Shown: positions 1,052 to 48,024 of the stretch, in pieces | Layout: the number at the start of each line of letters is the position of its first letter | Position numbering within the stretch: the stretch's first letter is position 1 | Virus record (IMG/VR): IMGVR_UViG_3300018080_003867 | Coordinates: 1-48,391 of that record | DNA length: 48,391 bases | Strand: one strand, 5' to 3' | DNA from: a virus | Taxonomy: Duplodnaviria; Caudoviricetes | The notes under the pieces: model-generated | The model's database searches: none | What the model saw: only the letters and a program-made list of their open reading frames with translations | What the model was told of the DNA's origin: nothing | Position numbers and translations under genes: made by a program

Positions 1052-1651
1052 CTAAAAATCAACCCCGAACCAACCGGCGCCATTAGGATTCCATACCTGT
1101 TTCTTAAAGTTGTGGATATGATAGAAGTAAAGACCAGGCATGTAAAAGAGCTGATACCCTGCTCTACTCAGTGCGCGTGAATATCGATTATCAACCCCCA
1201 TAAGCCTTTTCTTACCCTCGTCAAAGCCCCCACAAGCTTTCCATGCAGTTTTGTTGGTGAGAATAAAAAACCCACTGAGAGCTCCAGGTAACCGATCTAC
1301 AATGGTTTCACGTAAAACACCTTTCTCTGAGACAACACTGTGCTCATAGAAAAGCTTTTTTGCATAGTTAATGTGGTCAATCACATCATGGTTCTGTGGA
1401 GGATCAGGTGCTCGTTGTTGGGGAGCTCCAATGCGGTTTGTTACGCACGTAATCCAACCCACTTTTTGCTTTTTTAGCTTGTGTATGGCATAGCAACACA
1501 TATCATACCAATAGGCATTGCAGTTATAGAGGTCCCAATCTAAAAACAAGACCCATTCAGTTGGAGCGTTTTCCATAGCCTGATTATACGCTCGTGATAA
1601 ACGTCTACCTGGCTGATATGGGATATAAACAGTTATTTCTCTTGGTTTCAT
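1052..1651 (-). CDS. Putative GT-A fold (GT2-like) glycosyltransferase
   Basis: LSRAYNQAM...WVLFLDWD (DxD), SGFFIL...W..CGGFDE...GVDNRYS. Confidence 0.75.
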   Translation of the reverse strand: MKPREITVYIPYQPGRRLSRAYNQAMENAPTEWVLFLDWDLYNCNAYWYDMCCYAIHKLKKQKVGWITCVTNRIGAPQQRAPDPPQNHDVIDHINYAKKLFYEHSVVSEKGVLRETIVDRLPGALSGFFILTNKTAWKACGGFDEGKKRLMGVDNRYSRALSRAGYQLFYMPGLYFYHIHNFKKQVWNPNGAGWFGVDF

Positions 1652-2337
1652 GCTGATTTTCTGTTTGTGCGGCTAATGGAGGCATCAATAAAGCTCAGGT
1701 CTTTGATAATGTTGCCCCCCAGATAAGTGTTAATGTGATCTACTGCTCTATTTGTCTCGAACAATAAATGCTCGAATGGAACGTTAATATATGGGATATT
1801 ATTTCTGATTAATACATCTAATGCTTGATTGTGGTAAAGCCTTGCAAGATCTGCAAATTGACCCATATAAAGCCGTTCTTTATTGCCTCTATTTCGCATG
1901 CTTTGCGCTACATCGTCATATTTCCTCAACATTACGATGATTTTGACTTGTTGCGAGTCAATACCAGCTTGGGCAATAGCTTCAATCCAAAACCGCAGAG
2001 TTAAGCAGGTCCGGGGGTCCTTCCAGCCCCATAATTGAAAATAATTATCATAATATTGAATGATGCGGACCATGCGATCCATGTAGGTTTGTTTGATTTT
2101 GGTATCATCCCAGGCCGGCGTGATAGGCTTAAAGGCTTTTACGCGATGCCCCCCCTCATGAAGCATCTTATCGTTTAATTGCCTAAACCGCTTGTTTTCA
2201 AAAAAGCCCTTGGGGTTTTCCCGCATTGGTGGGGGATAAAAATCAACATCCTCCCCCATGGTAACACCATTAGAATGCAGTAAGCCAGCTAAAGCCGAAG
2301 TGCCACTTCGGTGCATCCCAACAACAATAACAAGCAT
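1648..2337 (-). CDS. Sulfotransferase family protein
   Basis: PAPS-binding loop GMHRSGTS, plus NPKGFFE and WGWKDPR motifs. Confidence 0.85.
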   Translation of the reverse strand: MLVIVVGMHRSGTSALAGLLHSNGVTMGEDVDFYPPPMRENPKGFFENKRFRQLNDKMLHEGGHRVKAFKPITPAWDDTKIKQTYMDRMVRIIQYYDNYFQLWGWKDPRTCLTLRFWIEAIAQAGIDSQQVKIIVMLRKYDDVAQSMRNRGNKERLYMGQFADLARLYHNQALDVLIRNNIPYINVPFEHLLFETNRAVDHINTYLGGNIIKDLSFIDASISRTNRKSA

Positions 2338-2376
2338 TGTTTCATCCTTTGCAACCCCCCAAGGTTAGAGAAAATC

Positions 2377-2925
2377 CTACCGCACGTTATGCCACCACAC
2401 AAACCGACGAAACTCAAATTTGTCTTTGAAGACTTCATGCACGGCTTTGGTAACGCCAAATGACCGATTATGTCCTTTAACTCGGTAATCATGGCCCGAA
2501 AGCAACCCCCCAGATTTGATCTTAGGCAACCATGCCTGAATATCTTGCATGATGTATTCATAGGCATGATTACCGTCGATAAACACAAAATCTAATGAGT
2601 GATCTTCAATAAGCCGTGCTGCAGCTAAGCTATACTCACGTAAAAGCAGATAACGTTCTGTGTGGGGGGCCATCCTTCCTAAAAACGTTTTCATGACTTG
2701 GTTATAGTCCGCATCATGGAATTTAGCTTTATTAGGGTTTAGCGTTTTGGTTTGGTCAGGATAGTGCTCAAATGGATCAACGCAGAATAGTTTTTCGAGG
2801 TTAGGCAAGGCCTCCATTAGCCGGTAGGATGTGTCCCCCTCAAATACGCCTATTTCTGCTCCGCGTTGGTGGGGCCGTTCTTTTAGTAGATCAATTAAAA
2901 TATTCCACCGTTTGTTTTTACTCAT
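2377..2925 (-). CDS. Class I SAM-dependent methyltransferase (Methyltransf_24-like)
   Basis: GAEIGVFEG, VDPF, LDFVFIDGNHAYE, GGLLSGHDY; start placed at MSKNK (2925), overlapping the sqdB stop. Confidence 0.85.
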   Translation of the reverse strand: MSKNKRWNILIDLLKERPHQRGAEIGVFEGDTSYRLMEALPNLEKLFCVDPFEHYPDQTKTLNPNKAKFHDADYNQVMKTFLGRMAPHTERYLLLREYSLAAARLIEDHSLDFVFIDGNHAYEYIMQDIQAWLPKIKSGGLLSGHDYRVKGHNRSFGVTKAVHEVFKDKFEFRRFVWWHNVR

Positions 2926-4132
2926 AGACAACCCCGTCATAGTCAATAGGCATATCGTTGCGCCAAGTGCTTGTGCAGATTATTTTATCTAGGTTTACTC
3001 GGTCTTTATGATTATTAACCAGATCAATCAATTCCTGCAATGACTTTTTATTGAGGGTTATGGGATCTAATCCTAAATTGTGGATATTTTCCATGCACGC
3101 ACTGAGAGTGTTTTCTACAGCCTCAACCCGTGGGTTCTTATAACAGCGGATTTCGGCATCAGTGAGCCCTTGAATAAGTCTGGCGATATTCATAATGTTC
3201 AGTTGCTGTGTAGTTTGATTCCACACCTTAACCCGCTTGTCAGTTTTTGCGGGGGGGTTTTCAATGGCAAGTTGAATGCACTCGACTGTGTTTTGAATAT
3301 GCACAAAAGCCCTGGTTTGGCCTCCAGTACCGTGAACAGTTAAAGGATGGCCTACGGCACTTTGTACAATCCAACGATTCAAAACCGTTCCAAAGTCCCC
3401 ATCATAATCAAAGCGGTTTATCAATCTAGGGTCTAGGGCTGTCAGATCGGTATTTATCCCCCAAACAATGCCTTGATGCAGATCGGTTATCCGCAGGCCA
3501 TCATTTTTATGATAAAACGCAAAGAGCTGGGCGTCCAAAACTTTGGTCATATGATAAATAGACCCTGGATTAGGCGGGTAGTAGATAATAGCTGGCACTT
3601 TCTCATGTGTGATCGGATCAATCATATGACAATCAATATAGCCCTCAGGAATAGTCATTCCGGCCGTACCATAACCATAAACCCCCATAGTTCCCAAGTG
3701 CACCACATGGGCGTCTACTTGGGTTTCAACCAGTGCGTTTAGAAGGTTGTGTGTTGTGCGAATGTTGTTTTCTACAGTGTAGGCCTTATGCCGTGGGCTT
3801 TTCATTGAATAAGGAGCAGATCGTTGCTCTGCAAAGTGCACAATGGCCTGCGGCTGGATTACTCTGATTTCTTCACACAGATTAAGGTAGTCGCGGGCAA
3901 TATCTAAATAAACATGTTTGATAGACCTGCCTGTAAGCTCACTCCAGGCCGCGCAGCGTTCTTCAATTGACCTGATAGGGGTAACACTGCTCACACCTAG
4001 TTCAGTGTCCATATCGCGACGCACGAGGCTATCAATAATGGTTACATCATAGCCTAAGTTACTTAGGTGAAGTGAAGTAGGCCATCCACAAAACCCATCC
4101 CCACCTAAAACCATAATACTGCCTTTAGTCAT
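2918..4132 (-). CDS. sqdB: UDP-sulfoquinovose synthase (SqdB/SQD1/Agl3 family, extended SDR)
   Basis: GGDGFCGWPTSLHLS, HFAEQRSAPYSM, HLGTMGVYG, PGSIYHMTK, TDLHQGIVWG, RFDYDGDFGTVLNR, LTVHGTGGQTR and NPRVE are hallmark SqdB segments. Confidence 0.93.
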   Translation of the reverse strand: MTKGSIMVLGGDGFCGWPTSLHLSNLGYDVTIIDSLVRRDMDTELGVSSVTPIRSIEERCAAWSELTGRSIKHVYLDIARDYLNLCEEIRVIQPQAIVHFAEQRSAPYSMKSPRHKAYTVENNIRTTHNLLNALVETQVDAHVVHLGTMGVYGYGTAGMTIPEGYIDCHMIDPITHEKVPAIIYYPPNPGSIYHMTKVLDAQLFAFYHKNDGLRITDLHQGIVWGINTDLTALDPRLINRFDYDGDFGTVLNRWIVQSAVGHPLTVHGTGGQTRAFVHIQNTVECIQLAIENPPAKTDKRVKVWNQTTQQLNIMNIARLIQGLTDAEIRCYKNPRVEAVENTLSACMENIHNLGLDPITLNKKSLQELIDLVNNHKDRVNLDKIICTSTWRNDMPIDYDGVVYE

Positions 4133-4952
4133 GATTAGTTTCCTTTTCTACAATTTTTGCTCGAGCAAGCTCAGCGTCGAACATTTTTGCGCAATCATCT
4201 TTGGTAAGTTTGTGAACATTACCACACCACACAACGTCATTGGGTTTATTGCGACCGGGCAAGCCGTACTTTAGAGGTAGCGTTAAGGCCTCTAGCCGTT
4301 TGTCTTTCACTGCAGCTTCATAAGCAATCCAGCAACTTGTTTGCCCCCAACCAATGGGACGTTGTTTTGGTGGCATAGAGCAAGACGTTCTGATCCAATC
4401 AGAAAGCCAGTGACGGGTGTTTGGTGTGATATGCAGGGCCATCATGTCGATAGTTATACGGGCTTTAACTGGGTTGATATTTGGCCGCAATTTGAGCCCC
4501 ACATCATACCCTTTCATCTCATCAACGATATCTTTGATATTGGCACGGAACAGGGTATCAATATCAAAATGCACAATAAGTGCATCGGGTTCATCAGGGA
4601 ATTCTCGCAGCATGTTGTAGACTTTTAAAACACGATCCTCCCCTGCAATCATTAGTTTCCAAGCCCGATTTTGTTCGGTAACGTAGCCATGCTCTACTTG
4701 CTCTCGCCATTTTTTTAAAGTCTTGACAGGTATGCCACTTCGCTTGGACATAGTCTCGAGGTTATATGGTCTTTTTTTAACCTTTATTATGGGATATTGG
4801 TAATAAAGGTCCTCTTTCATTTTATCATCAATACCAATGGCATCGATGAATAAAGGAGTGTGATCATTGGCATGGTGAAAGCAAAAACTTTCGACAAAAA
4901 CTTTAGCTAGTTCGTGCATGCCTGCGGTGTAGTAGGTATGGATAACTAGCAT
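4125..4952 (-). CDS. Putative nucleotide-diphospho-sugar transferase (GT-A fold)
   Basis: IVHFDIDTLFR DxD motif, later W..W and GWGQ segments; position within the glycan operon. Confidence 0.55.
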   Translation of the reverse strand: MLVIHTYYTAGMHELAKVFVESFCFHHANDHTPLFIDAIGIDDKMKEDLYYQYPIIKVKKRPYNLETMSKRSGIPVKTLKKWREQVEHGYVTEQNRAWKLMIAGEDRVLKVYNMLREFPDEPDALIVHFDIDTLFRANIKDIVDEMKGYDVGLKLRPNINPVKARITIDMMALHITPNTRHWLSDWIRTSCSMPPKQRPIGWGQTSCWIAYEAAVKDKRLEALTLPLKYGLPGRNKPNDVVWCGNVHKLTKDDCAKMFDAELARAKIVEKETNHD

Positions 4953-4956
4953 GATG

Positions 4957-6351
4957 TTAGGCCACTACTGGGGGTAAAGGTTCAAGGGGAGCTCCAGTCA
5001 TATCTTGCCCCCATTGTTTATTTATTCCATACACAGACCAGGGCTTAGGCGCATTGACGGGTTTATCCCAAAAATCCAGTCGGTCAATGTTCAAAAACTC
5101 CTTACCTTGGCTGGCAAGATAGGCACGGCGTAGCAAGGGCTCCATTTGGTCAAGCCAGATACGATCTAGCGAGAAAAACCATTGGTCTTTCAGATTGCGC
5201 AACCGGGGGATAACCATCATGGCTATCTCGTCGAAATATTGCTCGACAGACGGGTTATAATGTACCATGCGAAAATCACCAGATTGACCGTCACGAATAC
5301 CAGGGGTTTTGTGGTTGGTGTTGATGTAAATGGCATCCCTACCCCCCATCTCTTTTAAGCACGGCAGGTTTTCATTAAGCACCAACTGACACCCGCTGAT
5401 TTTCGCCTCCTGAAACACATTGCCTACTGTTTCGCGCCAAGAGGTGAACACAAATAGGTTGGATAATTTGAATAGGTCAGCAATGGATTTTCGAGGGATA
5501 GGTTTGTGATTGTTAATGTCACACGTCCAAATGTAATCCTCATTTTCTACTAGCCCCAAGTGGTTCATCCACTGCTTTTTGCGCGCCATCTCTTCCATAC
5601 GTTTTTTACTGTTGGCATTGGCCAGGATAAGCGCTACCCGTTGCCCAGAGCGTTTGAGTGCGGCAAACATGTGGATGACCCCATCAATGCCTTTGCTGTC
5701 CATTCGCGTCGTGCAAAAGGGAAAGATCTGAACAACCTGTTTATTGGGCAGGTCCAAAATATCCGAGATCTTCCACACAATCGGGTCCATTTCATGGAAA
5801 CTACGGATATCTTTAGGATTATAGACTGGGTGACACTGCCAAGGTTCAGCGTTGTACATGCGCTGGAGCCCGGGGAGCTCAAACGAATTCAAATAGACCA
5901 AGAAAGACTTCAGCGGGATTTGGTAGCGCAAGTTTTCGGGGTACTTAGCCATGGGATCACGAGTAGTCCACGATGAATGGATCCAATGGCACCACCATGC
6001 CTTGAGCTTTTCAGCAACTTCACGCATGGCTGCAGACTGGGCTAAGAAGTTGCCTTTGCGCTGGTAGACCATATCCGCAGTTAAAACCACGTCATAGGGC
6101 TGTAAGACCTCGAGATAGGCCTTTTTAAATGTCTCAACCCGGTCTTTGAATGGAACCTCCGAGATAGGATTAGGCAGGCAATTGACTTGGTTGGGGTAAA
6201 GTGTCTCTTTGCATTTTGTGTTGACTAGAAAATCAAAGTCTACCCCATACCGTTCGAGCATGCGCGCACGTTCGTGCCACCCTACATGTAGAGCATAACT
6301 TGATTGAAAACCCCCGAAATGACTACAGATTGCAACTTTTATTTGATCCAT
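4957..6351 (-). CDS. GT-B fold (GT4-like) glycosyltransferase
   Basis: C-terminal DLFKLSNLFVFTSWRETVGNVFQEA (E-x7-E motif) and RMDSKG. Confidence 0.8.
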   Translation of the reverse strand: MDQIKVAICSHFGGFQSSYALHVGWHERARMLERYGVDFDFLVNTKCKETLYPNQVNCLPNPISEVPFKDRVETFKKAYLEVLQPYDVVLTADMVYQRKGNFLAQSAAMREVAEKLKAWWCHWIHSSWTTRDPMAKYPENLRYQIPLKSFLVYLNSFELPGLQRMYNAEPWQCHPVYNPKDIRSFHEMDPIVWKISDILDLPNKQVVQIFPFCTTRMDSKGIDGVIHMFAALKRSGQRVALILANANSKKRMEEMARKKQWMNHLGLVENEDYIWTCDINNHKPIPRKSIADLFKLSNLFVFTSWRETVGNVFQEAKISGCQLVLNENLPCLKEMGGRDAIYINTNHKTPGIRDGQSGDFRMVHYNPSVEQYFDEIAMMVIPRLRNLKDQWFFSLDRIWLDQMEPLLRRAYLASQGKEFLNIDRLDFWDKPVNAPKPWSVYGINKQWGQDMTGAPLEPLPPVVA

Positions 6352-6472
6352 TTTGAACCCTTCCCATGGTGCAGCTTATCCCATATTGATTTGATTTTTG
6401 AAAATTGGTGGGATTATAGACCAGGCAGCCTAGCTTGGAAACCACAATATTTTTGGGGATTACGAGAGAGGC

Positions 6473-6766
6473 TTAATAGCGGGTGAACCGACCGCGGGAT
6501 TGTCCTACTTCGAGTTTAACAATGTCCACCAAAAAGTAAGGTATCTTAAGAGCCTGTTCAATATCTGTGGCCGTGCTTGGAAATTCACTAAGCTCTATGT
6601 ATTCAAAATTCCAACCATATTTTATAAGTTGTGCTTTGCTGAACAACATAGCTTCATGCATATAGGGCGACCAAACCATAGGGTAAACAAATTTCAAAAA
6701 TTCAAACGTGTCACGCCTAACCAAGATGAAAGCCTCTTTTATTTGGTTATCAATGGTAGTTTCCAT
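6473..6766 (-). CDS. Hypothetical protein
   Basis: 97 aa ORF overlapping the end of the upstream ORF, co-oriented with the glycan operon. Confidence 0.55.
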   Translation of the reverse strand: METTIDNQIKEAFILVRRDTFEFLKFVYPMVWSPYMHEAMLFSKAQLIKYGWNFEYIELSEFPSTATDIEQALKIPYFLVDIVKLEVGQSRGRFTRY

Positions 6767-6938
6767 GAACCAGATCTTTCTTGAAGGCTTCTAGGAGTTC
6801 TAATGCTGTGTTCAACCGGCTTAGCCGCTCGTTTGGGTTTAATTCCATTGCTAGCAGGTGACGTATAGCATAGTCAACCTTCTCAGGCAATGGTTGAGTT
6901 CCAATTGTTTCGATTAGTTGCTTAAAGCTTTGTCCCAT
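6750..6938 (-). CDS. Hypothetical protein
   Basis: 62 aa ORF preceded by an AGGAG RBS on the minus strand. Confidence 0.6.
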   Translation of the reverse strand: MGQSFKQLIETIGTQPLPEKVDYAIRHLLAMELNPNERLSRLNTALELLEAFKKDLVHGNYH

Positions 6939-7188
6939 GTTGATCTCCTATTATATATAGGATGACTTCCCACAAATTTTGTGCAATGGTGGGGTTTATC
7001 TATTCTATGGGATACTTTTTATATACTATGCGGTAAATTCACGGTAAACTAAATAAATACAGGCAATTAGCGCGACAATATCAATCAGATGAGTATAGTA
7101 AAATCCATGGATTGTGTAGGTCAATACAGCATCGGTAAGGACTGGACTTAAAAAAACTACAGCTATGAGGAGCACTAGCCAGAATTGC

Positions 7189-7527
7189 TTAATCATTGTT
7201 CAAATACATTTTCTCAATATCTTCTAAAGCCTTAGCCAGTTCGTTTTCTACCACAGAAGTGACAAATTTCATAGCGTAAGGTAATTCTTCTTTTAAACAA
7301 GGCATGGACACCGAAATAAACACCTTGGTGGTCTCAAACTCTGCAATAGATACTGTTTCGCCCCGGCCATAGTTTACATAGCCAGGTACAATACCTTCAG
7401 GGAAAACCCGAACGTCTAAGATCTCTGCCTTGGGCGGGTGTTTGGTGGTTCCCTCCTTATCTTTAAACTGGCTTTCCCACTTAATCGTGGCACTTCGGTT
7501 TGTGGTGGTATTTTTTGCAGTCTTCAT
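7189..7527 (-). CDS. Hypothetical phage protein
   Basis: Start reassigned to MKTAKN at 7527 (AAGGA RBS upstream), which removes the overlap with the divergent ORF at 7615. Confidence 0.65.
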   Translation of the reverse strand: MKTAKNTTTNRSATIKWESQFKDKEGTTKHPPKAEILDVRVFPEGIVPGYVNYGRGETVSIAEFETTKVFISVSMPCLKEELPYAMKFVTSVVENELAKALEDIEKMYLNND

Positions 7528-7614
7528 ATAGTTATCCTTTTTGCAGTGTTCATGTCTTGCGCTATCTATCATACTATTGTATGGGATACAATCGCAATTT
7601 AGGAAGGAATCAAA

Positions 7615-7908
7615 ATGGCACACGATATCATAAGCAGAGTTCGGACTAGTAAAGTCTTTACCTATTATGCGTCTTTTAGTTTAGACTATCAGGAAAAGCT
7701 AGATCGACTGGATTCTGTGATTTGTTACTTTGATGCACAAGATGAGCAAGCGTTTGCCGATCTGGTAGCAAAGAAACTTGGTATTTGTTGCGAGTGTGCA
7801 GATAAGATACTAGATTATATTAATGATGAAACGTATTTTGAGCTCTTATTTGCTTATGTGGATTTGGTAATTGAAAGAAAGCAGCATGCAGTAAAGAGTA
7901 ACCATTAA
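7615..7908 (+). CDS. Hypothetical protein
   Basis: AGGAAGGA RBS; 97 aa with CCEC. Confidence 0.6.
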   Translation: MAHDIISRVRTSKVFTYYASFSLDYQEKLDRLDSVICYFDAQDEQAFADLVAKKLGICCECADKILDYINDETYFELLFAYVDLVIERKQHAVKSNH

Positions 7909-7923
7909 GAATAAAGAGGACTA

Positions 7924-8187
7924 ATGAGCCAAGCAAAAAACATAAAATTTTGGAAGTCCAGAGAAATTGAAACAATTCGATTCATAGAACCCGAGGATAA
8001 AATCGAACTCGAATCATTTGAGCCCCCAACCGTACCGGGGCAATGGATAAAATCAGACCGCATAGGTCCACAAAAGATTATGAACTACTCAATATGTACG
8101 GCTACTGGCAAGATAATTGTGCATTCCAACGAAACGAAGTGTTTGATTTGTGAACTATTAGAAGAGTACAAAAATAATGCATCATAG
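7924..8187 (+). CDS. Hypothetical protein
   Basis: GAGGA RBS; 87 aa. Confidence 0.6.
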   Translation: MSQAKNIKFWKSREIETIRFIEPEDKIELESFEPPTVPGQWIKSDRIGPQKIMNYSICTATGKIIVHSNETKCLICELLEEYKNNAS

Positions 8188-8236
8188 GTAACTAGAGCTA
8201 ATAACCTGGTGCAATTCGAGAAAGGATGCCCATAAA

Positions 8237-8470
8237 ATGAAATACCTTACCCTAGAGAATGAGGAAGATCTTAAATCTCATATGCAGGCATTTAGCGAAT
8301 GGATTATACAAGAACAGGTCAATGATGATCAGCTACTTCACTTATTGACCGCAAGTATTGCAGCCATAATACGACATAGCAATTGTACTATATGGGAAGT
8401 GATTGACAGAATAGAAGACCATAATGACCATATTGCTAAAAGAAGGCAGAGTGACAACAACACACCCTAA
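8237..8470 (+). CDS. Hypothetical protein
   Basis: AAGGA RBS; 77 aa. Confidence 0.6.
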   Translation: MKYLTLENEEDLKSHMQAFSEWIIQEQVNDDQLLHLLTASIAAIIRHSNCTIWEVIDRIEDHNDHIAKRRQSDNNTP

Positions 8471-8570
8471 AGTATATTGCTGTTTAATTTGTGAGATAGG
8501 ATCACAAAACTTAGTATGGGATACCTTGTGCACTATAGACAGCCCAATCTTGATGTGTTACGCATTCTGA

Positions 8571-9944
8571 ATGTTATCTAAAATTACAATTGAACCTGCT
8601 GGATTGTATTGCAAAGCCGATCCAGACCTTATTGACCCTATAGCCGAAATCCTTCAGTACGAAAAAAAGGTTAGCAAACCTTGCCAATTTGGGACCAAAA
8701 TTGTCAGAAAACCCGCATATTTTATCGATAGGCGCAATGGGAGGTTTTTATCTGGATTGCTCGAGCGGGTGACTAAACAGTTATCCGCCCAAAACATCCC
8801 TTGTGCCTTAAGCATAGGTGATTACTCTGACTGCCCTCCTGGCCCCACAGTAGCCCCAAAGCTCAAAGGCCTCACACTAAGACCAGATCAAGAAAAACTC
8901 GTCTCACAGGCCCTCAGATTTTCCCGTGGCGTGATTGTGAGTCCTACCGGTAGCGGAAAGACTATCACAGCATTAGGGATTATTAGCCAATGGCCTAACG
9001 CACGATCCCTAATCTTAGTTCACCGGCGCGATATCGTAAAACAGTTTGCGGAGCGAGCGGCTAAGCATCTACCAAATGTAGAGCTCCAGGTGATTTCAGG
9101 AGGGGGCCAGGACTTAACCGGGCAATTGGTGTGCTCAACCATTCAATCCATCGTAAAATACCCTATAAAGGATGTAATAGACAAGTTTGACATTACCATT
9201 TGTGATGAATGCCACCATGTCAGCGATAGAAAAGGCATGTATGGACAATTTATGGGACGCAATCTAGCGCCTATTAAAATTGGGTTTACCGCGACCCTAC
9301 CAACCGATAGGGAAAAGCTTTTGGCAATGGAAGGTATTTTAGGGCCGGTCATTGGGGAACTTACACTAGAGGAAGGTCAAGAGATGGGTATTATCGCCAA
9401 GCCATTTGTTACACTCATACCTATCCCATATGATCTCGATATTGGGGAGCTTAGAAAATACCGCGAAGTCTATGCAAAAGGCATCGTAACAAATAGGGCG
9501 CGCAACGCAAAGATTACGAAAACAGCCATTGAGAGGGCAAACCGCAACCTAACCTCCATTTCGCTGATCACTGAGGTTCAACACGGTCATATTTTGCTTG
9601 ATATGGCTTGCCAGCTAGGCCTGGCATCCAAGTTTGTCCAAGGGGCCACCAAAAGCCGTGACCGTGACGAGATCAAAGCCTTGCTCGATAGCAAAGCGGT
9701 AGACAACGTTATTTGCACCAATGTTTGGAAAGAAGGTATTGACATACCTACCGTAGGGACCATTATTTTGGCTGGCGGAGGTAAAAGTGCTATTGGTGTT
9801 TTGCAAGGGGTTGGTCGCGGCTTAAGAACGGCTGAAGGCAAAGACACGGCTGAAATAGTTGATTTCCTCGATCCTTACCGCTATCTGGCAGAGCATGCTA
9901 TTGCCCGGATTACAGTTTATGCTCAAAAGGGTTGGTTAAAATAA
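8571..9944 (+). CDS. Superfamily 2 DNA helicase (UvsW/DEAD-like)
   Basis: SPTGSGKT (Walker A), DECHH (motif II), FTAT (motif III), EGIDIP, QGVGRGLR (motif VI). Confidence 0.92.
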   Translation: MLSKITIEPAGLYCKADPDLIDPIAEILQYEKKVSKPCQFGTKIVRKPAYFIDRRNGRFLSGLLERVTKQLSAQNIPCALSIGDYSDCPPGPTVAPKLKGLTLRPDQEKLVSQALRFSRGVIVSPTGSGKTITALGIISQWPNARSLILVHRRDIVKQFAERAAKHLPNVELQVISGGGQDLTGQLVCSTIQSIVKYPIKDVIDKFDITICDECHHVSDRKGMYGQFMGRNLAPIKIGFTATLPTDREKLLAMEGILGPVIGELTLEEGQEMGIIAKPFVTLIPIPYDLDIGELRKYREVYAKGIVTNRARNAKITKTAIERANRNLTSISLITEVQHGHILLDMACQLGLASKFVQGATKSRDRDEIKALLDSKAVDNVICTNVWKEGIDIPTVGTIILAGGGKSAIGVLQGVGRGLRTAEGKDTAEIVDFLDPYRYLAEHAIARITVYAQKGWLK

Positions 9945-9968
9945 AAAGTATCCCATATTCTTTATTAA

Positions 9969-9997
9969 TTGCATTCGCACTCACCTAGCGATATAGT
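9969..9997 (+). promoter_or_regulatory. Sigma70-like promoter
   Basis: TTGCAT-N17-TATAGT upstream of the RBS at about 10014. Confidence 0.6.
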
Positions 9998-10027
9998 AAG
10001 CCAACATCAACAAAAGGAGTGCTATGC

Positions 10028-10186
10028 ATGGATCGAATTTCGCTAGCAGTGCTGATTTTAAGCGGGTGTATTGCAGTTTTAGGGGTATTTGCCGAAGTCC
10101 GCAGGCGTACAACTGAGAAACGCAAAACACAAGCTAGACTTAATAAGTGGTTTATAAAATACTCTTCTGAACACTCCCAACAGTAA
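10028..10186 (+). CDS. Small membrane protein (52 aa), not in the ORF track
   Basis: AAGGAG RBS; MDRISLAVLILSGCIAVLGVFAEVRRRTTEKRK..., one hydrophobic helix followed by a basic stretch. Confidence 0.6.
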   Translation: MDRISLAVLILSGCIAVLGVFAEVRRRTTEKRKTQARLNKWFIKYSSEHSQQ

Positions 10187-10198
10187 ACCTTCCTAATT

Positions 10199-11095
10199 AT
10201 GTTTGATGTACTATCCTACCTCGAATCTAGAAGTGTAGAGCATTGGACAAGCGGTAAGAACGTTGCTGAGGGATGGGTAAATATCCGCTGTTTTTATTGT
10301 GATGATTCATCTAACCACCTCGGTATAAACCTAGCTACAGGATTTCATAGTTGCTGGAGGTGTGGGCGTAAAGGGGGACCTGCAAGGCTTATTGTGGCCA
10401 TTGAGCATTGCGGCTATAAAAAGGCCTACCATATCCTTAAATCATTCGAAGGACAAGGATCGCAGGTTTATTACAAGCCGCAGACTATCTGCCCTCCTGA
10501 ATCGTTTGCTTTGCCCTCGACCACCATTGACACGTTGCCTAGTGCTCATAGAGCTTATCTTATTAGTAGAGGGTTTGATCCTGATCAATTGCAGAAAGAA
10601 TATGGTATTAAAGCAACGCTGAACATAGGGCGATATCGACACAGGATTATTATCCCGATTTATTTTGAAGGTGAGCTTGTTAACTTTGTTGCCCGAGACA
10701 TTACGGGCAACTTTGATCAGCGCTACTTGATGCCTCCGACGCATAGCGTGCTAATGCGTCGTGACCAAGTGCTTTACGACATAGATCGTTCTGGTGAATC
10801 TATCGCAATTGTAGAGGGGGTCTTTGATGCGTGGCGTATAGGCAAAGGTGCCATTGCGACGTTCGGAACACGTTTCACCGACGAGCAATGCAACATTTTA
10901 TATCGCAAGAAAGTGCAACGTGCATTCATCATTTTCGATCATGATGCGGCACTCACTCAAGGCCAGCAGATGGCGGAAAAGCTATCTCATATTATCCCAC
11001 ATGTAGAGAACTTAGTCATATCTGAAGGTGACCCTGACACATACTTCTTGAATAATCCCGAGGACTTGAATAGTATTAAATTTTTGTTGGGCTAA
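10199..11095 (+). CDS. DNA primase (Zn finger + TOPRIM)
   Basis: CFYC...CWRC zinc finger, RIIIPI, VEGVFD, FDHD, GDPD. Confidence 0.9.
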   Translation: MFDVLSYLESRSVEHWTSGKNVAEGWVNIRCFYCDDSSNHLGINLATGFHSCWRCGRKGGPARLIVAIEHCGYKKAYHILKSFEGQGSQVYYKPQTICPPESFALPSTTIDTLPSAHRAYLISRGFDPDQLQKEYGIKATLNIGRYRHRIIIPIYFEGELVNFVARDITGNFDQRYLMPPTHSVLMRRDQVLYDIDRSGESIAIVEGVFDAWRIGKGAIATFGTRFTDEQCNILYRKKVQRAFIIFDHDAALTQGQQMAEKLSHIIPHVENLVISEGDPDTYFLNNPEDLNSIKFLLG

Positions 11096-11108
11096 TCATA
11101 ATTTAATC

Positions 11109-11137
11109 TTGAGTCCTTTTGCATTCTGATATTTAAT
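11109..11137 (+). promoter_or_regulatory. Possible sigma70-like promoter
   Basis: TTGAGT-N17-TTTAAT in the gap before the 11.3 kb ORF. Confidence 0.35.
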
Positions 11138-11284
11138 AGCCTCACAATTCGACTATCTGTTTTTATTTCACAGCAACCAAAAATTGAATGTGGCTAGCGT
11201 AAGCTCTCTTTAGAGCTGCGAACAGATATTTACATCCGATGGGAAACATAGTAATGGCCAGATTATGTTATGGAAGGAGGTAAA

Positions 11285-12919
11285 GTGACACAAGCACAGC
11301 ACGTTCAACCTATCGTAAACCACCTAGAAGACATAACCTGTATTGTCGATAAAACCCAAGAATGCCTAGAAAGCCTTTCTAGAGGTGCGGGGAGCGTCAT
11401 TGTCCACAAGGACGCGAATTACGAGGTCATTAACACAGCCGCGTTAAATGACCCTAAGCTCAGCTACAAGGCAGTAGGTCTGCATTACTACATGCAAACC
11501 TTAATGGATAAAAAACACATCGGCAAAAGAGATCTCATGACTGCGCATACAGATCGCAAGGACAGCGTAACTAGTGGTATGCGGGAACTCATACGCAATA
11601 AGTACCTGTACAAGGTACGTATCACTACGGGTAGAGGCACGATAGCTGGCGTAGTCTACGTTAGCTGCGCAGTACCTACACTAATAGACGAAGTTAAACT
11701 ACAAAAGGGTATGAGTGCTAGGTATAGGGAGCTTACAGAAGTGCGAGCAGCTAGCACTATAGACTGTGATGTGTACAACAACTTGTGGGACAAGGTTAGG
11801 AAAAAAACAGCCCTAAAAAACACCGAATCCTCCCCCACGTGCGCCTCCAAAAATGCACCCAAAGGCCGAACATATAAAATCTACAAAAAGGCGAGAAAGT
11901 ATAATAAAAACAAACCACTGTCTGGTAGCCCGCCTAGTGAAGATATCCCACAAACACCAAAAAATGAGGGTTTTCAGGAAAAAGCTGAACAAAATCAGAC
12001 CACTGTCGGTAAAGGCGACCATGGTTCCTCAAAAAGACATCATACTAGTAAGCTATCGGGTAAACATACACTATCATCAGCAACTGAATTCAAAGACAAC
12101 TTTCCCTTAATCAATTCCGCTATCGCTACATCGATTAAGAAAAAGTTGTCTGGGCAATCAAGCGATTGCCATACGACTAAGCTGGAAAGCAAATTTGATA
12201 GGAACATTATGAAACCCATATTTGATACATGGAGGCAGCAAACTAAACTCCCTACTCATCATATAGACCCTACCACTAAGTTATTTATACGTACTAGAGT
12301 ATTAGTACATAAATGCCTACTTGGCAAAGGGCACCCTACTAAACACTCTGTAAGGGATATTAAAGAAGCTATAATTAACTATGGTTGGATCACCGATCAA
12401 CCGTATACTGTGTTTAGAACAAAACATCGGCCTATGGTTGTTAGCATTGACGAATTTTTTAAGTTTTCAGACTATTCTAAAAATATAATTGCGGATAAAA
12501 ATCATCCCCTACATAATGCAACGAGTTGGTTTGATGAATCAAAGAAAGGCAAGACCTATCTGATTGAGAAATACTCCGCGCGCAAAAAAGATTGCCGTCC
12601 CAAATTAACCGAATTGCTTACAGAACTGCTCTTAAAAAGTGACGTTTTGGGGTTTTCCGACGCGCACTATTTGAAAAATATTGACACCAACACATTAATC
12701 GGCGTATCAGATCAACTTTACTCATTTGTTACTGAACATGATTACATGCCTCATTGTTCTGAGGTTTACGTAAAAACTATTGAGTGTATGATCCACCTAT
12801 TAGAGGAGGATAAAGAACGTTTACAGAAAGATATTCATGTTGGGTTTATGACTAGCGAGGTTTACTGGCAACGACTTGAGCAACTTATGATTCACCGGGG
12901 GGTATTACGCACGCGATGA
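11285..12919 (+). CDS. Putative replication initiator/replisome organiser with N-terminal HTH
   Basis: NYEVINTAALNDPKLSYKAVGLHYYM...MRELIRNKYL resembles phage initiator wHTH domains; lies between primase and helicase; GTG start after GGAGG chosen. Confidence 0.55.
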   Translation: MTQAQHVQPIVNHLEDITCIVDKTQECLESLSRGAGSVIVHKDANYEVINTAALNDPKLSYKAVGLHYYMQTLMDKKHIGKRDLMTAHTDRKDSVTSGMRELIRNKYLYKVRITTGRGTIAGVVYVSCAVPTLIDEVKLQKGMSARYRELTEVRAASTIDCDVYNNLWDKVRKKTALKNTESSPTCASKNAPKGRTYKIYKKARKYNKNKPLSGSPPSEDIPQTPKNEGFQEKAEQNQTTVGKGDHGSSKRHHTSKLSGKHTLSSATEFKDNFPLINSAIATSIKKKLSGQSSDCHTTKLESKFDRNIMKPIFDTWRQQTKLPTHHIDPTTKLFIRTRVLVHKCLLGKGHPTKHSVRDIKEAIINYGWITDQPYTVFRTKHRPMVVSIDEFFKFSDYSKNIIADKNHPLHNATSWFDESKKGKTYLIEKYSARKKDCRPKLTELLTELLLKSDVLGFSDAHYLKNIDTNTLIGVSDQLYSFVTEHDYMPHCSEVYVKTIECMIHLLEEDKERLQKDIHVGFMTSEVYWQRLEQLMIHRGVLRTR

Positions 12920-12931
12920 TTTGGGGGTAAA

Positions 12932-14470
12932 ATGGCTTTGAGGCGCACACGTATTAACGCAGATATTGAAAATGAAATTCTAACAGCACTGATTACAAAT
13001 TCACAGTTTATTAGCAAAGTTTGCAAGATGTATAAGGAGGATTATTTTAGCGATTATGGGCGTATCTTGTGCAAATGGGTTTTTGATTACTGGAATACGT
13101 ATCAAGAGGCCCCAGGAAAGAATATTGATACGATTTATAGTTTTGAAAAGGAGTCTCTAAAACCAGCCATTGCAGAATCTATTGAAGCCTACCTTGAGAC
13201 TTTGAGCAACGCCTACACGGGTGACGATCTTAATGTAAATTACATGGTAGAAAAAGCTCGTGTGTACTTTAGGCGAAAAGCTTACGAACGGCTGTTTGAT
13301 ACGGGGAAAAACTTAATGTCACTTGGGCGTGTTGAAAACGCTGTCAAGGTCCTTGGGGAATTTATAGATGTTGCGGGAACAACAAACAATTGGTGTAACC
13401 CATTTGATTCATCTTACGTAACAGATTACCTTTTTGATTTGGAGGAGGCCACAAACGTACTTTTTCGTCTTAAGGGGGCGCTAGGTGATTTAGTTGGTCC
13501 TTTAGAAAGAGGCTGGCTAGTGGCTATTTTGGGACCAATGAAGCGGGGAAAGAGCTACTGGCTACAGGAGATCTTGTTTCAAGCTGCAGTCCATAAAAAG
13601 CGAGTAGCCTATATTAATTTAGAAATGTTACCTCATGGTGTGAGTGGGCGGCTTTTCTCACGATTATTAGGGGTTGGTTTATCTACCCCTGAAAGAGTAC
13701 GCTATCCTATTTTTGATTGCAGACACAATCAGCGCGATACATGCCCTGTCAGCAAATTTAGACAAAATGATATTGCTTTAGTCTCGGGTGAGGATTACAG
13801 ATTGCCGAAGTGGGACACTCCGGGCTTAGGGGATTATCGGGCATGCTCGGTATGTAGAGAAAGTGATGAGCTAAAAAGATACTACGTTCCTGAAGTATGG
13901 TACACCTGGTTTACGCCGAAAAGAGAATTCAGTAGACACTCACTGACACGAAATGTACGCCAATTTACGAGACACTATGGCGACCGTATTAGACAGCTAA
14001 CCTATCCCCCGCTATCAGCAACATTTGAAAGGATTAAACAAGATCTAGATGAACTGGAATGGTCAGAAGGTTTTATACCTGACATTGTTGTGGTGGACTA
14101 TGCTGACGTTGTCGCGCCTCCTAACGAGCATATGAATGAGTACGAGCATGCGAATATGCTGTGGCTGAAAATGAAAGCTGCGGCTATCGAGAAAAAACAA
14201 CTCTGGGTTACGGGTAGTCAGACAAATCGTCAAGGATTAGAAAAGGAACTTGTTTCACAAAAAGATACGAGTGGTAATATTCGAAAGCTAGCACATGTTG
14301 ATGTTATGCTAGCTATAAATCAAACTGAAGAAGAGAAAGAGGATTTAATAATGCGCATAACGTGCCTAGTACATAGACATAGAGAATCTAGCCAGCTACG
14401 GCAGGTTCTTATTTTATCGCAATTGGCCTTGGGTATGCCGTACATTGATTCAGAGCTCTGCACATATTAA
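12932..14470 (+). CDS. DnaB-like replicative helicase
   Basis: GPMKRGKS (Walker A), INLEM, IVVVDYAD (Walker B), TGSQTNR. Confidence 0.85.
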   Translation: MALRRTRINADIENEILTALITNSQFISKVCKMYKEDYFSDYGRILCKWVFDYWNTYQEAPGKNIDTIYSFEKESLKPAIAESIEAYLETLSNAYTGDDLNVNYMVEKARVYFRRKAYERLFDTGKNLMSLGRVENAVKVLGEFIDVAGTTNNWCNPFDSSYVTDYLFDLEEATNVLFRLKGALGDLVGPLERGWLVAILGPMKRGKSYWLQEILFQAAVHKKRVAYINLEMLPHGVSGRLFSRLLGVGLSTPERVRYPIFDCRHNQRDTCPVSKFRQNDIALVSGEDYRLPKWDTPGLGDYRACSVCRESDELKRYYVPEVWYTWFTPKREFSRHSLTRNVRQFTRHYGDRIRQLTYPPLSATFERIKQDLDELEWSEGFIPDIVVVDYADVVAPPNEHMNEYEHANMLWLKMKAAAIEKKQLWVTGSQTNRQGLEKELVSQKDTSGNIRKLAHVDVMLAINQTEEEKEDLIMRITCLVHRHRESSQLRQVLILSQLALGMPYIDSELCTY

Positions 14471-14480: not shown

Positions 14481-14553
14481 AAATCAAAACAGCACTGGAC
14501 AAATCGCTAGAATGTGGGATATAGGGGCGATAGCTGGGGAGCTGTTTTGATTT
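14481..14553. repeat. 13-bp perfect inverted repeat with a 47-bp spacer
   Basis: AAATCAAAACAGC (14481-14493) and GCTGTTTTGATTT (14541-14553). Confidence 0.8.
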
Positions 14554-14576
14554 AACTTATGGGATAAGAGGTTACT

Positions 14577-15368
14577 ATGTTTGTTGCGTATGAAAATATT
14601 GTTCATGGTGAGATCCGTAAGATGATTAAAGAGCTCAACCGCAGTGGGCTGCTTAAGAAACGAATCATGTTGATCCCAAAAATGACAAAAAACCAGCTAG
14701 CCACGGCATTCATTCAGGGCATCCAACAGTGCTATGATGATGGTAATCTAGACTATGTGTCAGATGAAATCTATGATTACTACCTATCCATCGTAAGGCC
14801 GGATAAGAAACAACCACAAGAGCCACAGCCAGAAGTGGCAGAGCCTCCACAGAAGCCTGAGAAACCAAAAGGTAGGGGTAAGAGGGCACCCTCCCCTACC
14901 AAAAAGGCTTCAAGCTTATCTGAGAACGCCAAAGTAGCTGCGACTAAGAAAAAAAGGGGACGCCCAAAAAAGAAGTCTGCGGTGAAAAAAACCAAACCGG
15001 TCACAAAAAAGACTAGGGGCCGCAAGAAAGTAACTAAGAAGGCAACGATTGTCAAAAAGAAATCTGCGACCCCACGGGTTAAACGCGGGCCGGGCAGGCC
15101 GCGAAAACACCCAAAAGTAAAAAAACCAGCTAGCCAGAGTATAAAACGATCTGCGGAAACTACAGGGCACACCAGAGCCGGTGTTTACGCACGTATCGTG
15201 CAAGATAAAAAACCGCGAACAAAACAAGAGATCGTGGCAGAAATGGCTAAGCTCTATAAGGGCAGTAGGCAAGAGGCTGTTTACTGGGTAGGAGGTTACA
15301 ATGGGCTGTTAATTGCCTTAGGAAAAATGGTCAAACGCGCTGATGGTATGTTTGTGTATAAGGGTTAG
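14577..15368 (+). CDS. Basic histone H1-like/AT-hook DNA-binding protein
   Basis: Lys/Arg/Pro-rich middle region with AT-hook-like KKRGRPKK and RGPGRPRKHP, flanked by globular domains. Confidence 0.65.
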   Translation: MFVAYENIVHGEIRKMIKELNRSGLLKKRIMLIPKMTKNQLATAFIQGIQQCYDDGNLDYVSDEIYDYYLSIVRPDKKQPQEPQPEVAEPPQKPEKPKGRGKRAPSPTKKASSLSENAKVAATKKKRGRPKKKSAVKKTKPVTKKTRGRKKVTKKATIVKKKSATPRVKRGPGRPRKHPKVKKPASQSIKRSAETTGHTRAGVYARIVQDKKPRTKQEIVAEMAKLYKGSRQEAVYWVGGYNGLLIALGKMVKRADGMFVYKG

Positions 15369-20737: not shown

Positions 20738-20980
20738 ATGGATCCGTTATTTGGTCCATTAATTACCAAATTGGCCGAAATGGGAGCGGGCTACCTTGCT
20801 GCAGCATTAACCGTAGCGCTCTACATAATGGAGCGCAAGCGAAACACGGAACTAATTGATAGGCTGCATAAATTGAGTGTAGCAAGCTTAGAGGCGAATC
20901 AAGAGCATACTCAAATGTACGGATCGATTAACAAAGCCTTATCAGTGCTAGTGGATATTATCAAACGTGAGACACGATAG
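20738..20980 (+). CDS. Small membrane protein (one TM helix plus coiled coil; holin-like)
   Basis: GAGYLAAALTVALYIM followed by ERKRN and a heptad-like tail. Confidence 0.5.
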   Translation: MDPLFGPLITKLAEMGAGYLAAALTVALYIMERKRNTELIDRLHKLSVASLEANQEHTQMYGSINKALSVLVDIIKRETR

Positions 20981-22671: not shown

Positions 22672-22714
22672 TTACCCTTTCCCTGCCTATTTTATCCCAT
22701 ACTCGAGGATCTAC

Positions 22715-29857: not shown

Positions 29858-30139
29858 ATGGGTTATGTAAAGGTAAATTGGAATGGACATACGGTAACAC
29901 CCAATGAAAAAATCCTACTTGAGCATATCACAGGCAGCTATAGGCCTGCGGGTGTGGAGGCTGAGGATGTAAGACACTTATTGGGAGGCGAGCCGCTTAC
30001 GGCCCGTAGAACGCTTCACAGCTTGGCTGAAAAAAAGCTACTCAAAAAAAGGATTATCAAAAAAGCAGGAATTTGGGGTAATATGAGGACAGCCAGAAAA
30101 GTGGCTGTGTTTTATGTACCCGATCAAGAGGTATTATGA
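29858..30139 (+). CDS. Putative winged-helix DNA-binding protein
   Basis: AGGAGG RBS; TPNEKILLEHI...ARRTLHSLAEKKLLKK pattern. Confidence 0.55.
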   Translation: MGYVKVNWNGHTVTPNEKILLEHITGSYRPAGVEAEDVRHLLGGEPLTARRTLHSLAEKKLLKKRIIKKAGIWGNMRTARKVAVFYVPDQEVL

Positions 30140-30698: not shown

Positions 30699-30712
30699 GT
30701 ATCCCATAAAAA

Positions 30713-31642: not shown

Positions 31643-31679
31643 TCTTTTTAATGCAATGTATGGGATAAGGCTGTAAGAC

Positions 31680-36417: not shown

Positions 36418-36428
36418 TGTGGGATACA

Positions 36429-42087: not shown

Positions 42088-42089
42088 TT

Positions 42090-42533: not shown

Positions 42534-42555
42534 CCCCTAGCAAAGGAAAAGACCC

Positions 42556-42708: not shown

Positions 42709-42762
42709 AGCACTGGTAGGCAGCAACACTATCCCATAACCCAACATAAAGGATTCTGATAG

Positions 42763-45933: not shown

Positions 45934-46064
45934 AATCTAATAGTTGAACAAACCTAAAGGTATGGATACTATGAGGTACATATGACCAATGTGAATAGTT
46001 GTACATACGGAGTGGTAACACTCCGAGGTATCCGTGCCAGTAATGGCATTAGGAGGCGTAAGCC

Positions 46065-46949
46065 ATGAAAATGAAACCAAAAATTGAAAACGACCAAATT
46101 ATTCTCAGTGATGGGAAGCCGGTCTACGTCATGGAGGATGGAAAAGAATTTGTAGCTGACGTTCCTTCGCTTTATCAAAAAACGTTAGAGCTCAAAGGCG
46201 AGTCCAAGCGACATCGGGAAGCGAAAGAGATTGCTGAGGGCAAGGCCTCTTTTTACGCAGATCTATTTCCAGAAATGGATATGGAGGCATTAAAAGAATG
46301 GAAGCTTTCAGCAGATAGTGCTCTGGATACAGTAAAAAATCTCGAGGACAAAAAGCTGTTAGACGCTAAAAAAGTGGAGATCATAAAAAATGAACTTCGC
46401 GAAGCACACGACAAAAACCTAGCGAGCGTAAAAAAGAGTTTTGCCGAAAAGGAGTCTGAATATAAGGGATCGCTTTCTCGGAAAGACGAACAGATATTCA
46501 AACTCATGGTAGGCAATGCGTTTGCAAATAGCCGGTTTTTTGCAGGTAAAGAACCTTTAACGCTTTTACCCCCGGATGTAGCTTTAGCTGCGTTTGGGCA
46601 CAATTTCAAAGTCCGTGAGAATGAGAGCACCGGGGAGCTCCAGATTGTGGGATACCATAACGGTACTGAGATATTGAGCACGAAACCCGATAGAGTAGGG
46701 GAGATTGCAACGATTGATGAGGCAATTGAGGTGCTTATCGACCGTTACCCACAAAAAGACCGCATTATGGCTGCAGGCCGAAGTGGTAGTGGGGCTGGCG
46801 GGGGATCAAGTTTTGCGGGTAGTGGGGGCGATGAATTATCGAGGCTACAAAAACAATACAAAGACGCGAAAGCCGCGGGTGATGCGCGGCAAATGATCAC
46901 AATCCAAAACCGTATTTACAGTCTACAGCAGCAACAACGGGCATCCTAA
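46065..46949 (+). CDS. Capsid scaffolding protein
   Basis: AGGAGG RBS; GKPVYV N-terminus, coiled coil, Gly/Ser linker and terminal helices; directly upstream of the MCP. Confidence 0.75.
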   Translation: MKMKPKIENDQIILSDGKPVYVMEDGKEFVADVPSLYQKTLELKGESKRHREAKEIAEGKASFYADLFPEMDMEALKEWKLSADSALDTVKNLEDKKLLDAKKVEIIKNELREAHDKNLASVKKSFAEKESEYKGSLSRKDEQIFKLMVGNAFANSRFFAGKEPLTLLPPDVALAAFGHNFKVRENESTGELQIVGYHNGTEILSTKPDRVGEIATIDEAIEVLIDRYPQKDRIMAAGRSGSGAGGGSSFAGSGGDELSRLQKQYKDAKAAGDARQMITIQNRIYSLQQQQRAS

Positions 46950-47008
46950 AACGTATGGGATAGTTCAATGGTTGTTGCTGTAGCCAGGCACAAAAGGATA
47001 TGTAAGCA

Positions 47009-47968
47009 ATGGCAAACACGAATGCAGCAGCAACCGTTTGGAATTGTCCTAACTACACCGGGGAGCTCTACTTAATTGGAGCAAACCAAACTCCATTTTT
47101 AAACATGATCGGTGGATTGCAGGGGGGACGGGTAAAAACCGTTAGTGACTTTCAATTCCCTCTTGCTCAGCCATGGGCATTAGAAAGTGCCAGTCAGCCA
47201 GCGATTACCGAGACTGCAAGTTTGACCGCGCCAAACCCTTGGACCTATGTTCGCTCGCAAGACGTGAACACGGTGCAAATCTTTCAACGTCAGGTGTCCA
47301 TCAGTTACGCCAAACAATCGGTTATCGGCCAAATCACGGCAGACGCCACAACCAAGTTGGCCATGCTTGATCAGCAACCCGTGCAGAGTGAGTTGGACTT
47401 TCAAATTCAAGCTCATTTGCGCCAAATCGCAATCGATGCTGAATACACCTTTTTAAATGGTGCCTATCAGCAAGCGACTGCGGCTAATGTTGCGGCAAAG
47501 ACCCGTGGCATCATTACCGCATGCTCAAGTAACACGGTAAACGCAGCGAATGCTGCGCTAACCAAGGCATTGATGGATAACCTACTTCGCACCATGGCAG
47601 GCAATGGTGCAGAATTCATGAACCCGGTTTGTTTTGTGAATGCACGGCAGAAACAAAAGCTCAGTGACATTTACGGATATGCCCCCCAAGATCGCAATGT
47701 TGGCGGATACAACATCAAACAAATCGAAACGGATTTCTGCGTTTTGGGCGTGGTCTATGCACCAAGAGTGCCTACCACAACCCTGTTAATCGCAGACCTG
47801 GCTGTTTGTGAGCCTGTGTTCCTGCCTGTGCCTGAAAAGGGCGTCATGTTCTATGAAGAGCTCACCCGAGCCGGGGCCTCCAGTAGTGGGCAACTGTATG
47901 GACAGATGGGTATTAATTATGGTCCCGAAGAGTATCATGGAACAATTACGAGTCTTTCTGTAGCCTAG
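47009..47968 (+). CDS. Major capsid protein (HK97 fold)
   Basis: 319 aa; TPFLNMIG, NTVQIFQRQVSIS, DAEYTFLNG, RGII, IETDF, HGTITSL; follows the scaffold. Confidence 0.85.
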   Translation: MANTNAAATVWNCPNYTGELYLIGANQTPFLNMIGGLQGGRVKTVSDFQFPLAQPWALESASQPAITETASLTAPNPWTYVRSQDVNTVQIFQRQVSISYAKQSVIGQITADATTKLAMLDQQPVQSELDFQIQAHLRQIAIDAEYTFLNGAYQQATAANVAAKTRGIITACSSNTVNAANAALTKALMDNLLRTMAGNGAEFMNPVCFVNARQKQKLSDIYGYAPQDRNVGGYNIKQIETDFCVLGVVYAPRVPTTTLLIADLAVCEPVFLPVPEKGVMFYEELTRAGASSSGQLYGQMGINYGPEEYHGTITSLSVA

Positions 47969-48024
47969 TTTTTTAGGTTTTATGGGATATCTTTTTTTGT
48001 TCTGTGCAATAGGAGATCTGAACC

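Follow-up and report, generated by a model that had tools for sequence, protein, structure and literature searches.

The window analysed here, all 48,391 nucleotides (nt) of the uncultured tailed-phage record IMGVR_UViG_3300018080_003867, carries 39 copies of the nine-base word TRTGGGATA, which is very likely a selected site in this phage lineage. The array is real, conserved and orientation-free; its members are probable protein-binding sites, and we consider that it is probably read by a phage protein. The explanation that we propose, and to which we give roughly even chances, is that TRTGGGATA is the dispersed, orientation-free operator of one phage DNA-binding protein; the likeliest candidate is the product of the open reading frame (ORF) at 14577-15368, with its predicted winged helix.

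Counts, codons and gene junctions

The first-pass annotation of the window had described the word as over-represented, and its 39 coordinates proved exact and its list complete. The copies occupy both strands, 24 on + and 15 on -, with the spellings TATGGGATA (n=18), TATCCCATA (n=10), TGTGGGATA (n=6) and TATCCCACA (n=5); with the strands pooled, 28 copies are of the TATGGGATA type and 11 of the TGTGGGATA type. Order 2-4 Markov models, with the masked window as training sequence, predict 0.9-1.6 copies. The observed density is 806 per Mb, and the top-ranked 7-mer, 8-mer and 9-mer of the window are all this word.

Twenty-five of the 39 copies are coding, and all six reading frames are used. In 300 synonymous-codon shuffles that preserved every protein, coding copies averaged 2.4 and never exceeded 7, which rules out a codon or amino-acid artefact and bears out the earlier argument that codon use does not explain the word. 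The enrichment at gene junctions also stands. With a hand-made gene set, in which ORF 7189 starts at 7530 and a doubtful ORF at 47982 is dropped, 14 of the 39 copies are not wholly within a gene, whereas such positions make up 8.0% of the window (p 1e-6); an automatic gene set gives 11/39 non-coding copies and 7.3% of positions (p 8e-5). The close approaches to gene ends reported earlier were found again, with 0-4 nt to a stop codon at 9949, 30700, 36418 and 46954, and 10-12 nt to a start codon at 14558 and 31659.

The specificity of the word is sharp, all-or-none. Its one-mismatch variants (50) total 30 in the window against 22-27 expected, which is no excess, and 17 in the relative G001 against 26-28 expected. 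No position flanking the 9-mer is conserved, and neither a longer consensus nor a flanking motif was found around it. The word is a pseudo-dyad, TAT-GGG-ATA, and its reversal therefore alters the centre only. Spacing between sites is marginally more even than random (coefficient of variation 0.76 vs 0.96, p 0.056); the closest pair lies 45 nt apart and forms the single doublet in the window. No description of TRTGGGATA was found in the openly accessible papers searched, and the two in which one of five spellings occurs as a whole word have unrelated titles.

Conservation, orientation and promoter-like elements

Conservation in relatives had been set as a test of the word, and the result is positive. 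G001 is 65% identical to the window at the nucleotide level in aligned blocks, and it contains 27 copies of the word and 0 of a reversed control. Leaving out the 5/39 window sites that lie outside these blocks, 17 of the 34 alignable sites are kept in G001 (15 at the same position, 2 within 2 nt), compared with 4.7% of all 9-mers; by class, 8/12 non-coding and 9/22 coding sites are kept. At sites whose overlapped residues are all the same in the window and G001, the word is kept in 7 of 9 cases, as against 12.9% for ordinary 9-mers. Elsewhere, sites are kept in 6/7 cases in L123, 5/6 in G004 and 3/4 in G002. Several homologous sites exchange A and G at position 2 of the word, and site gain and loss between relatives are seen as well.

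Within what was searched, the word looks private to this lineage. A doublet scan of viral contigs gave 119 loci in the 40/64 parts scanned (~190 estimated in all), and a dispersed array was present in G001 only. L259/L236 and L193 contain 4 or 5 copies, largely within tail-gene repeats. Searches through ORF 14577 alone, through the G006-type alignment or through the D12 methyltransferase yielded no new genome.

The sites and the two ORFs that we compare as binders are as follows.

6377..6385, - strand: intergenic; a conserved leftward TATAAT ahead of the glycosylation gene cluster lies ~28 nt upstream of it; kept in G001
7006..7014, + strand: intergenic amid small leftward genes, adjoins a conserved AT-rich -10-like stretch; kept in G001
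7580..7588, + strand: divergent gap; falls within the spacer of TTGCGA-18-TATGAT, a predicted leftward promoter; kept in G001
8515..8523, + strand: its end lies 12 nt (9 nt in G001) ahead of the SF2 helicase gene's conserved promoter-like element, TAGACA-17-TA
9949..9957, - strand: ends 11-12 nt before a promoter-like TTG...-17/18-TATAGT, an element kept in the window, G001 and L123
14513..14521, + strand: first site of the doublet, starts 11 nt after a TRGACA -35-like hexamer (window, G001, L123) and overlaps the -10 region
14558..14566, + strand: second copy in the doublet, next to the ORF 14577 ribosome-binding site
22693..22701, - strand: between ssb and recA-like genes; not in G001
30700..30708, - strand: 14-nt gap between small genes; not in G001
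31659..31667, + strand: 12 nt before a small terminase-like gene; not in G001
36418..36426, + strand: between convergent genes; kept in G001 with a 2-nt offset
42730..42738, - strand: before the portal gene; kept in G004, not in G001
46954..46962, + strand: separates the scaffold gene from the major capsid gene; kept in both G002 and G004
47981..47989, + strand: directly behind the major capsid gene; kept in G004 and, with A to G, in G002
Coding copies, + strand: 1617, 1790, 4788, 16856, 17840, 18675, 19962, 24373, 27026, 30467, 35366, 37151, 41602, 44646, 46646
Coding copies, - strand: 9422, 10993, 11944, 17499, 21273, 25263, 30940, 32143, 33460, 34519
14577..15368, + strand: candidate binder ORF, 263 residues, predicted domains
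29858..30139, + strand: rival binder ORF, 93 residues, predicted winged helix

The sites are not orientation-locked, as had been proposed: 18 run with transcription (sense), 19 against it (antisense) and 2 are ambiguous. Site 9949 is even reversed in place in G001 and L123, with the 11-12 nt spacing to TTG...-17/18-TATAGT retained in all three. Because orientation is unrelated to transcription, the sites are not stoperators. Their placement is uneven, with 28 of the 39 in a 30-kb early/replication stretch (23/27 in G001), while among tail genes the 13.7 kb of G003 contain none and the 6.3 kb of G004 a single site. Two of the functions first suggested, uniform coating of the genome and a recombination or packaging signal, are unsupported because the sites cluster in the early/replication half and are absent from the 13.7 kb of the relative's tail module.

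The conserved non-coding sites take up several positions with respect to promoter-like elements, which resemble sigma70 promoters: upstream of a -35-like hexamer by 9-12 nt (8515), inside the spacer (7580, where the TATGAT is present in G001 too), over the -10 (14513) and downstream of a TATAAT (6377). Conserved promoter-like elements without any site occur near 15350 and 45920. We considered whether a sigma factor might read the word directly as a promoter element, in the form of an extended -10 variant (TRTG-G-GATA), since at 14513 it sits where relatives have TGnTATAAT before the orthologous gene. This is very improbable: half of the copies are antisense, 25 are within genes, the flanks show no conserved position, one site only has a suitably spaced -35-like hexamer, and one site flips without moving.

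Candidate readers of the word

Of the binders listed in the first-pass annotation, the first-named, ORF 14577-15368, comes out best and has a unique doublet; the other two phage genes on that list, 29858 and an initiator-like gene, are rivals that lack one. ORF 14577 is the sole gene of 64 with two sites within 130 nt upstream, and the same is true of its orthologue among 61 G001 genes. The L123 orthologue has the doublet as well, at the same 11-nt distance from TRGACA. An AlphaFold model built on a 5-sequence alignment predicts a helical N-terminal domain (N-domain, residues 1-75), a lysine-rich, basic, disordered linker and a C-terminal domain (200-261). The C-terminal 60 residues are modelled as three helices and a hairpin at a predicted local distance difference test score (pLDDT) of ~88, and the structure neighbours of this domain are winged helices, namely RpoE/delta and IclR at expectation values (E) of 0.23 or worse and the Mrr_N and HARE-HTH clusters at a template modelling score of ~0.7. 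The N-domain (pLDDT 88) gave a best fold-search Z of 4.8 and no clear match, and the protein has no Pfam, PHROG or NCBIfam match. Finally, the putative recognition helix is near-identical in the three word-bearing lineages (window, G001 and L123) and altered in L124, which has 0 copies of the word in 12.7 kb. On the combined sequence and model evidence ORF 14577 is the best candidate, and its predicted binding is to us an evenly balanced proposition.

Under this proposal, protein 14577 would determine how active the early and replication promoters are, and via the doublet it would repress its own gene. Repression would be expected where a site lies in a spacer, over a -10 or just downstream (7580, 14513, 7006 and 6377), and activation or bending where a site precedes a -35 by 9-12 nt (8515 and 9949). 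The coding copies might act by looping or road-blocking. As the word is a pseudo-dyad, a dimer could accept either orientation.

The sister phage G006 (L090-L094) has a word of its own, TGDGCHCA, with 190 copies in 87 kb, 31/190 of them non-coding as against 6.8% of positions, and two copies lie upstream of its orthologue of ORF 14577. The same genome has a 30-nt promoter-like block repeated at 5190, 9511 and 82975.

Several observations weigh against the assignment to ORF 14577. Its fold matches are weak and generic, the best having an E of 0.23, and the co-variation of helix and word may merely track kinship. L124 has no replacement word; an excess of GGGGTA there is explained by G skew. The doublet may mark a strong operon promoter open to any regulator, and its replicate in G006 is weak because 7/115 genes there have at least two sites upstream. 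The DnaB-linked loci (6-21 kb) besides G001 and G006 show no strong dispersed word, and four near-complete relatives, three of them with the gene, gave nothing beyond a log10 P of -6, compared with -31 in the window, in a test whose 20% minority-strand filter dropped G001's own 9-mer (4/21) and is hence conservative. Since most carriers show no dispersed word, having a member of the 14577 family does not entail having a word. The missing one-mismatch variants point to a specificity sharper than expected for most transcription factors. A promoter scan of the window found 26 consensus look-alikes against 25.4 in shuffles, so that the support for the promoters comes from conservation and not from the scan.

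The same operator array might be read by another phage protein, either the winged helix at 29858-30139 or the N-terminal helix-turn-helix (HTH) of the replication initiator-like 11270-12919, which we regard as rather unlikely. ORF 29858 has winged-helix (FaeA/MarR-like) look-alikes at a feature score of 0.92 and, among 14 relatives compared, is found in the word-bearing G001 only (58% identical), while 11270 matches a replication-initiation family. However, neither has a doublet within 130 nt upstream, and 29858 has no upstream site at all. Moreover, few genes differ as much between the window and G001 as 11270 does (38% identity over part), though the word is unchanged, and the sigma-like ORF 34962 has no match in G001.

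A host protein, be it a global regulator, a nucleoid protein or DnaA with a shifted box, could instead bind the word, with the phage recruiting it to promoters or titrating it. A host switch would account for sister phages with other words or none, and TATCCCACA and TATCCCATA match the DnaA box consensus TTWTNCACA, as given in the available text of PMC11447400, at 7/9 and 6/9 positions, respectively. The commonest form of the word is, however, the poorer DnaA match, and no clustering at an origin is seen. The highest density among 401 genomes of one candidate phylum was ~51 per Mb vs 806 per Mb in the window; that phylum was picked from a Desulfovibrio metagenome-assembled genome holding a 62% capsid relative, and it may not be the host's. 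The genomes with a high ratio to control show scattered single sites among those listed. We consider a host binder unlikely. In its favour, several major capsid protein relatives share a degenerate word, AG-NN-AW, despite differing C-termini of their 14577-family proteins, which points to a host or other cause there.

The degenerate word occurs on both strands of G005, G008, G009, G010, G013 and G014, where forms around the AG-NN-AW core (AAGTCAAA, GTAGTAAA, TGAGGCAA and TRTAGTCA) are 3-20-fold enriched. In G005, G008, G013 and G014 these words show no non-coding enrichment, and they may be a separate phenomenon.

The last alternative is that the word is an enzyme target, of a methyltransferase, a nickase or a Chi-like recombination system, or a product of biased repair, a possibility raised for HIP1 of cyanobacteria, and that promoter proximity is secondary. 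The all-or-none specificity and the use of both strands would fit, and the MT-A70 (25343) and D12 class (32476) adenine methyltransferase genes are common to the window and G001 only among the 14 relatives. The G006 word contains GDGCHC, which we take to be a restriction-modification site, while GAGCTC is lacking in G006 (0 vs 63 expected). Yet the uneven distribution, the empty tail module and the fixed distance to conserved promoter-like elements misfit a mutational drive or Chi, and enzymes of these families do not usually have a target of 9 bp that is both contiguous and asymmetric. G006 has the stronger array, yet no DNA methyltransferase was found among its 38 unshared ORFs scanned, and the T..A flanks of its word matter (190 copies vs 4-38 for other flanks). 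On balance, an enzyme or repair origin is decidedly unlikely.

Near DnaB (L131-L164) we observe an unannotated protein family with a conserved 70-residue N-domain, an acidic or basic linker and an exchangeable C-terminal HTH, usually behind a TATAAT-type promoter. The N-domain profile matches 24 of the 39 loci fetched by DnaB (some of them near-duplicates), and the C-terminal HTH domains are very variable. A widespread phage protein family is thereby brought to notice.

Genome context and known systems

Pfam and PHROG scans of the 64 window ORFs identify a tailed phage whose nearest cultured relative reaches a capsid match of 39% at best. A leftward glycosylation cluster is accompanied by small early genes, an SF2 helicase, a primase, the initiator-like protein, DnaB and a clamp; further replication genes encode a polymerase A fused to uracil-DNA glycosylase, a clamp loader, a single-stranded DNA-binding protein, a RecA-like protein and nucleases, and two adenine methyltransferases, terminase, portal, scaffold and capsid complete the set. 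Because G003 runs from head genes through a tail module to a homologue of the window's first gene, the sequence suggests a full genome of ~64 kb, with ~16 kb of tail genes outside the window. No integrase, ParA/partition gene or recognisable repressor was found among the 64 window ORFs and 31 ORFs of G003/G001, with ~16 kb outside the window and many ORFs without a family. Among these ORFs nothing turned up that would give a purpose to lysogenic silencing of the stoperator type. Four public DNA sequencing runs gave low-depth, near-identical contigs with no usable polymorphism and, among the rows listed, no joint at a site; no RNA run holding the phage was listed.

Some further features of these genomes deserve mention. 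A stand-alone MshE-type cyclic di-GMP-binding domain protein (20967-21302, +; NF053729, E 7e-14, above cut-off) lies within the replication operon and is also found in G001. The family A DNA polymerase at 16619-19306 (+) carries its uracil-DNA glycosylase-like domain at the N-terminus, and a Sigma-70 region 4-containing ORF at 34962-35693 (+), directly after the terminase gene, has no match in the 14 relatives compared. A UDP-sulfoquinovose synthase-like gene (2918-4132, -; NF041015, E 6e-95, below the family cut-off) clusters with glycosyl-, sulfo- and methyltransferases common to several relatives, possibly for virion glycosylation with a sulfosugar. The hexamers CAGCTG (0 vs 17 expected), AGTACT (0 vs 14) and CTACGA (0 vs 11) are avoided in the window, and GAGCTC, GCCTCCA and GCGGCTA are weakly enriched, a pattern likely due to host restriction sites and to secondary words. 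Eight type II hammerhead ribozymes above the Rfam threshold lie on the - strand of L085 (G005:1-20000) at 2050-14263, and their CTGATGAG core is repeated in G008 and G013 too; the window contains no hammerhead and no structured RNA with an Rfam match.

A broader and more doubtful idea, which we hold tentatively, is that this phage group carries a modular chromatin-like protein beside its replicative helicase, its N-domain conserved and unclassified and its C-terminal HTH exchangeable, and that some lineages made it the sequence-specific reader of a private genome barcode, TRTGGGATA here and TGDGCHCA in G006, that is embedded in both codons and promoters. If true, the phage genome would be organised and controlled through addresses of its own, with neither an integrase nor a classical repressor. 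The comparison with G006 also raises the idea that word and helix change together.

Among known systems, DNA uptake sequences, HIP1 and Chi are short words of about one per kb that occur on both strands and are written into codons, but they are host-chromosome features spread evenly, whereas TRTGGGATA is specific to a phage lineage, uneven and without a near-miss halo. The predicted layout of the candidate, an N-terminal helical domain, a linker and a C-terminal DNA-binding domain, resembles that of Rok/H-NS-like DNA-bridging proteins, which have an N-terminal domain, a charged flexible linker and a C-terminal DNA-binding domain (a winged helix in Rok) and, in the text available, prefer AT-rich DNA with motifs that are loose (PMC6936261). 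In contrast, the word here is sharp and G-cored, and the family scans and fold comparisons described above turned up no link of the candidate to Rok, H-NS, MvaT or Lsr2. The intergenic repeats of T1-like phages, of 21 nt and ~20 copies in a virulent phage, with their function left open in the accessible part of that report (PMC11447400), are longer, oriented with transcription and at a fixed distance from starts, unlike TRTGGGATA.

The operators and stoperators of Cluster A mycobacteriophages are, as far as the available text describes them, more than 20 asymmetric 13-bp sites at promoters and in short intergenic spaces, direction-locked and bound by the two-HTH immunity repressor of temperate phages (PMC9283540). 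The array in the window likewise exceeds 20 asymmetric sites spread over the genome, a good number of them in short gaps between genes (39, with 14 non-coding). It differs in its free orientation, with site 9949 reversed in two relatives, in a candidate with one predicted C-terminal winged helix, and in that no integrase or partition gene was found among the ORFs scanned, within the limits given above.

The closest published case is the 17-bp repeat TGTTCGGNNNCCGAACA of Cluster O mycobacteriophages. According to the accessible text, each genome has more than 30 near-invariant copies, of which ~40% fall in short intergenic gaps and the rest in genes; the repeats are unoriented, conserved in relatives and denser in the non-structural arm of phages without an integrase, and neither their binder nor their purpose is known (PMC4351075). 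Invariant sites, the lack of orientation bias, conserved positions and the mix of intergenic and coding copies are all shared with TRTGGGATA. Phages that apparently do not integrate thus pose the question of what such orientation-free, genome-wide repeats are for, and the present case brings several differences. Here a 9-bp pseudo-dyad is kept at 65% identity, a much greater distance than that over which the perfect 17-bp dyad TGTTCGGNNNCCGAACA is conserved among very similar genomes; sites turn over; and the doublet marks a named candidate binder (65 residues), with a sister phage that has a different word and helix.

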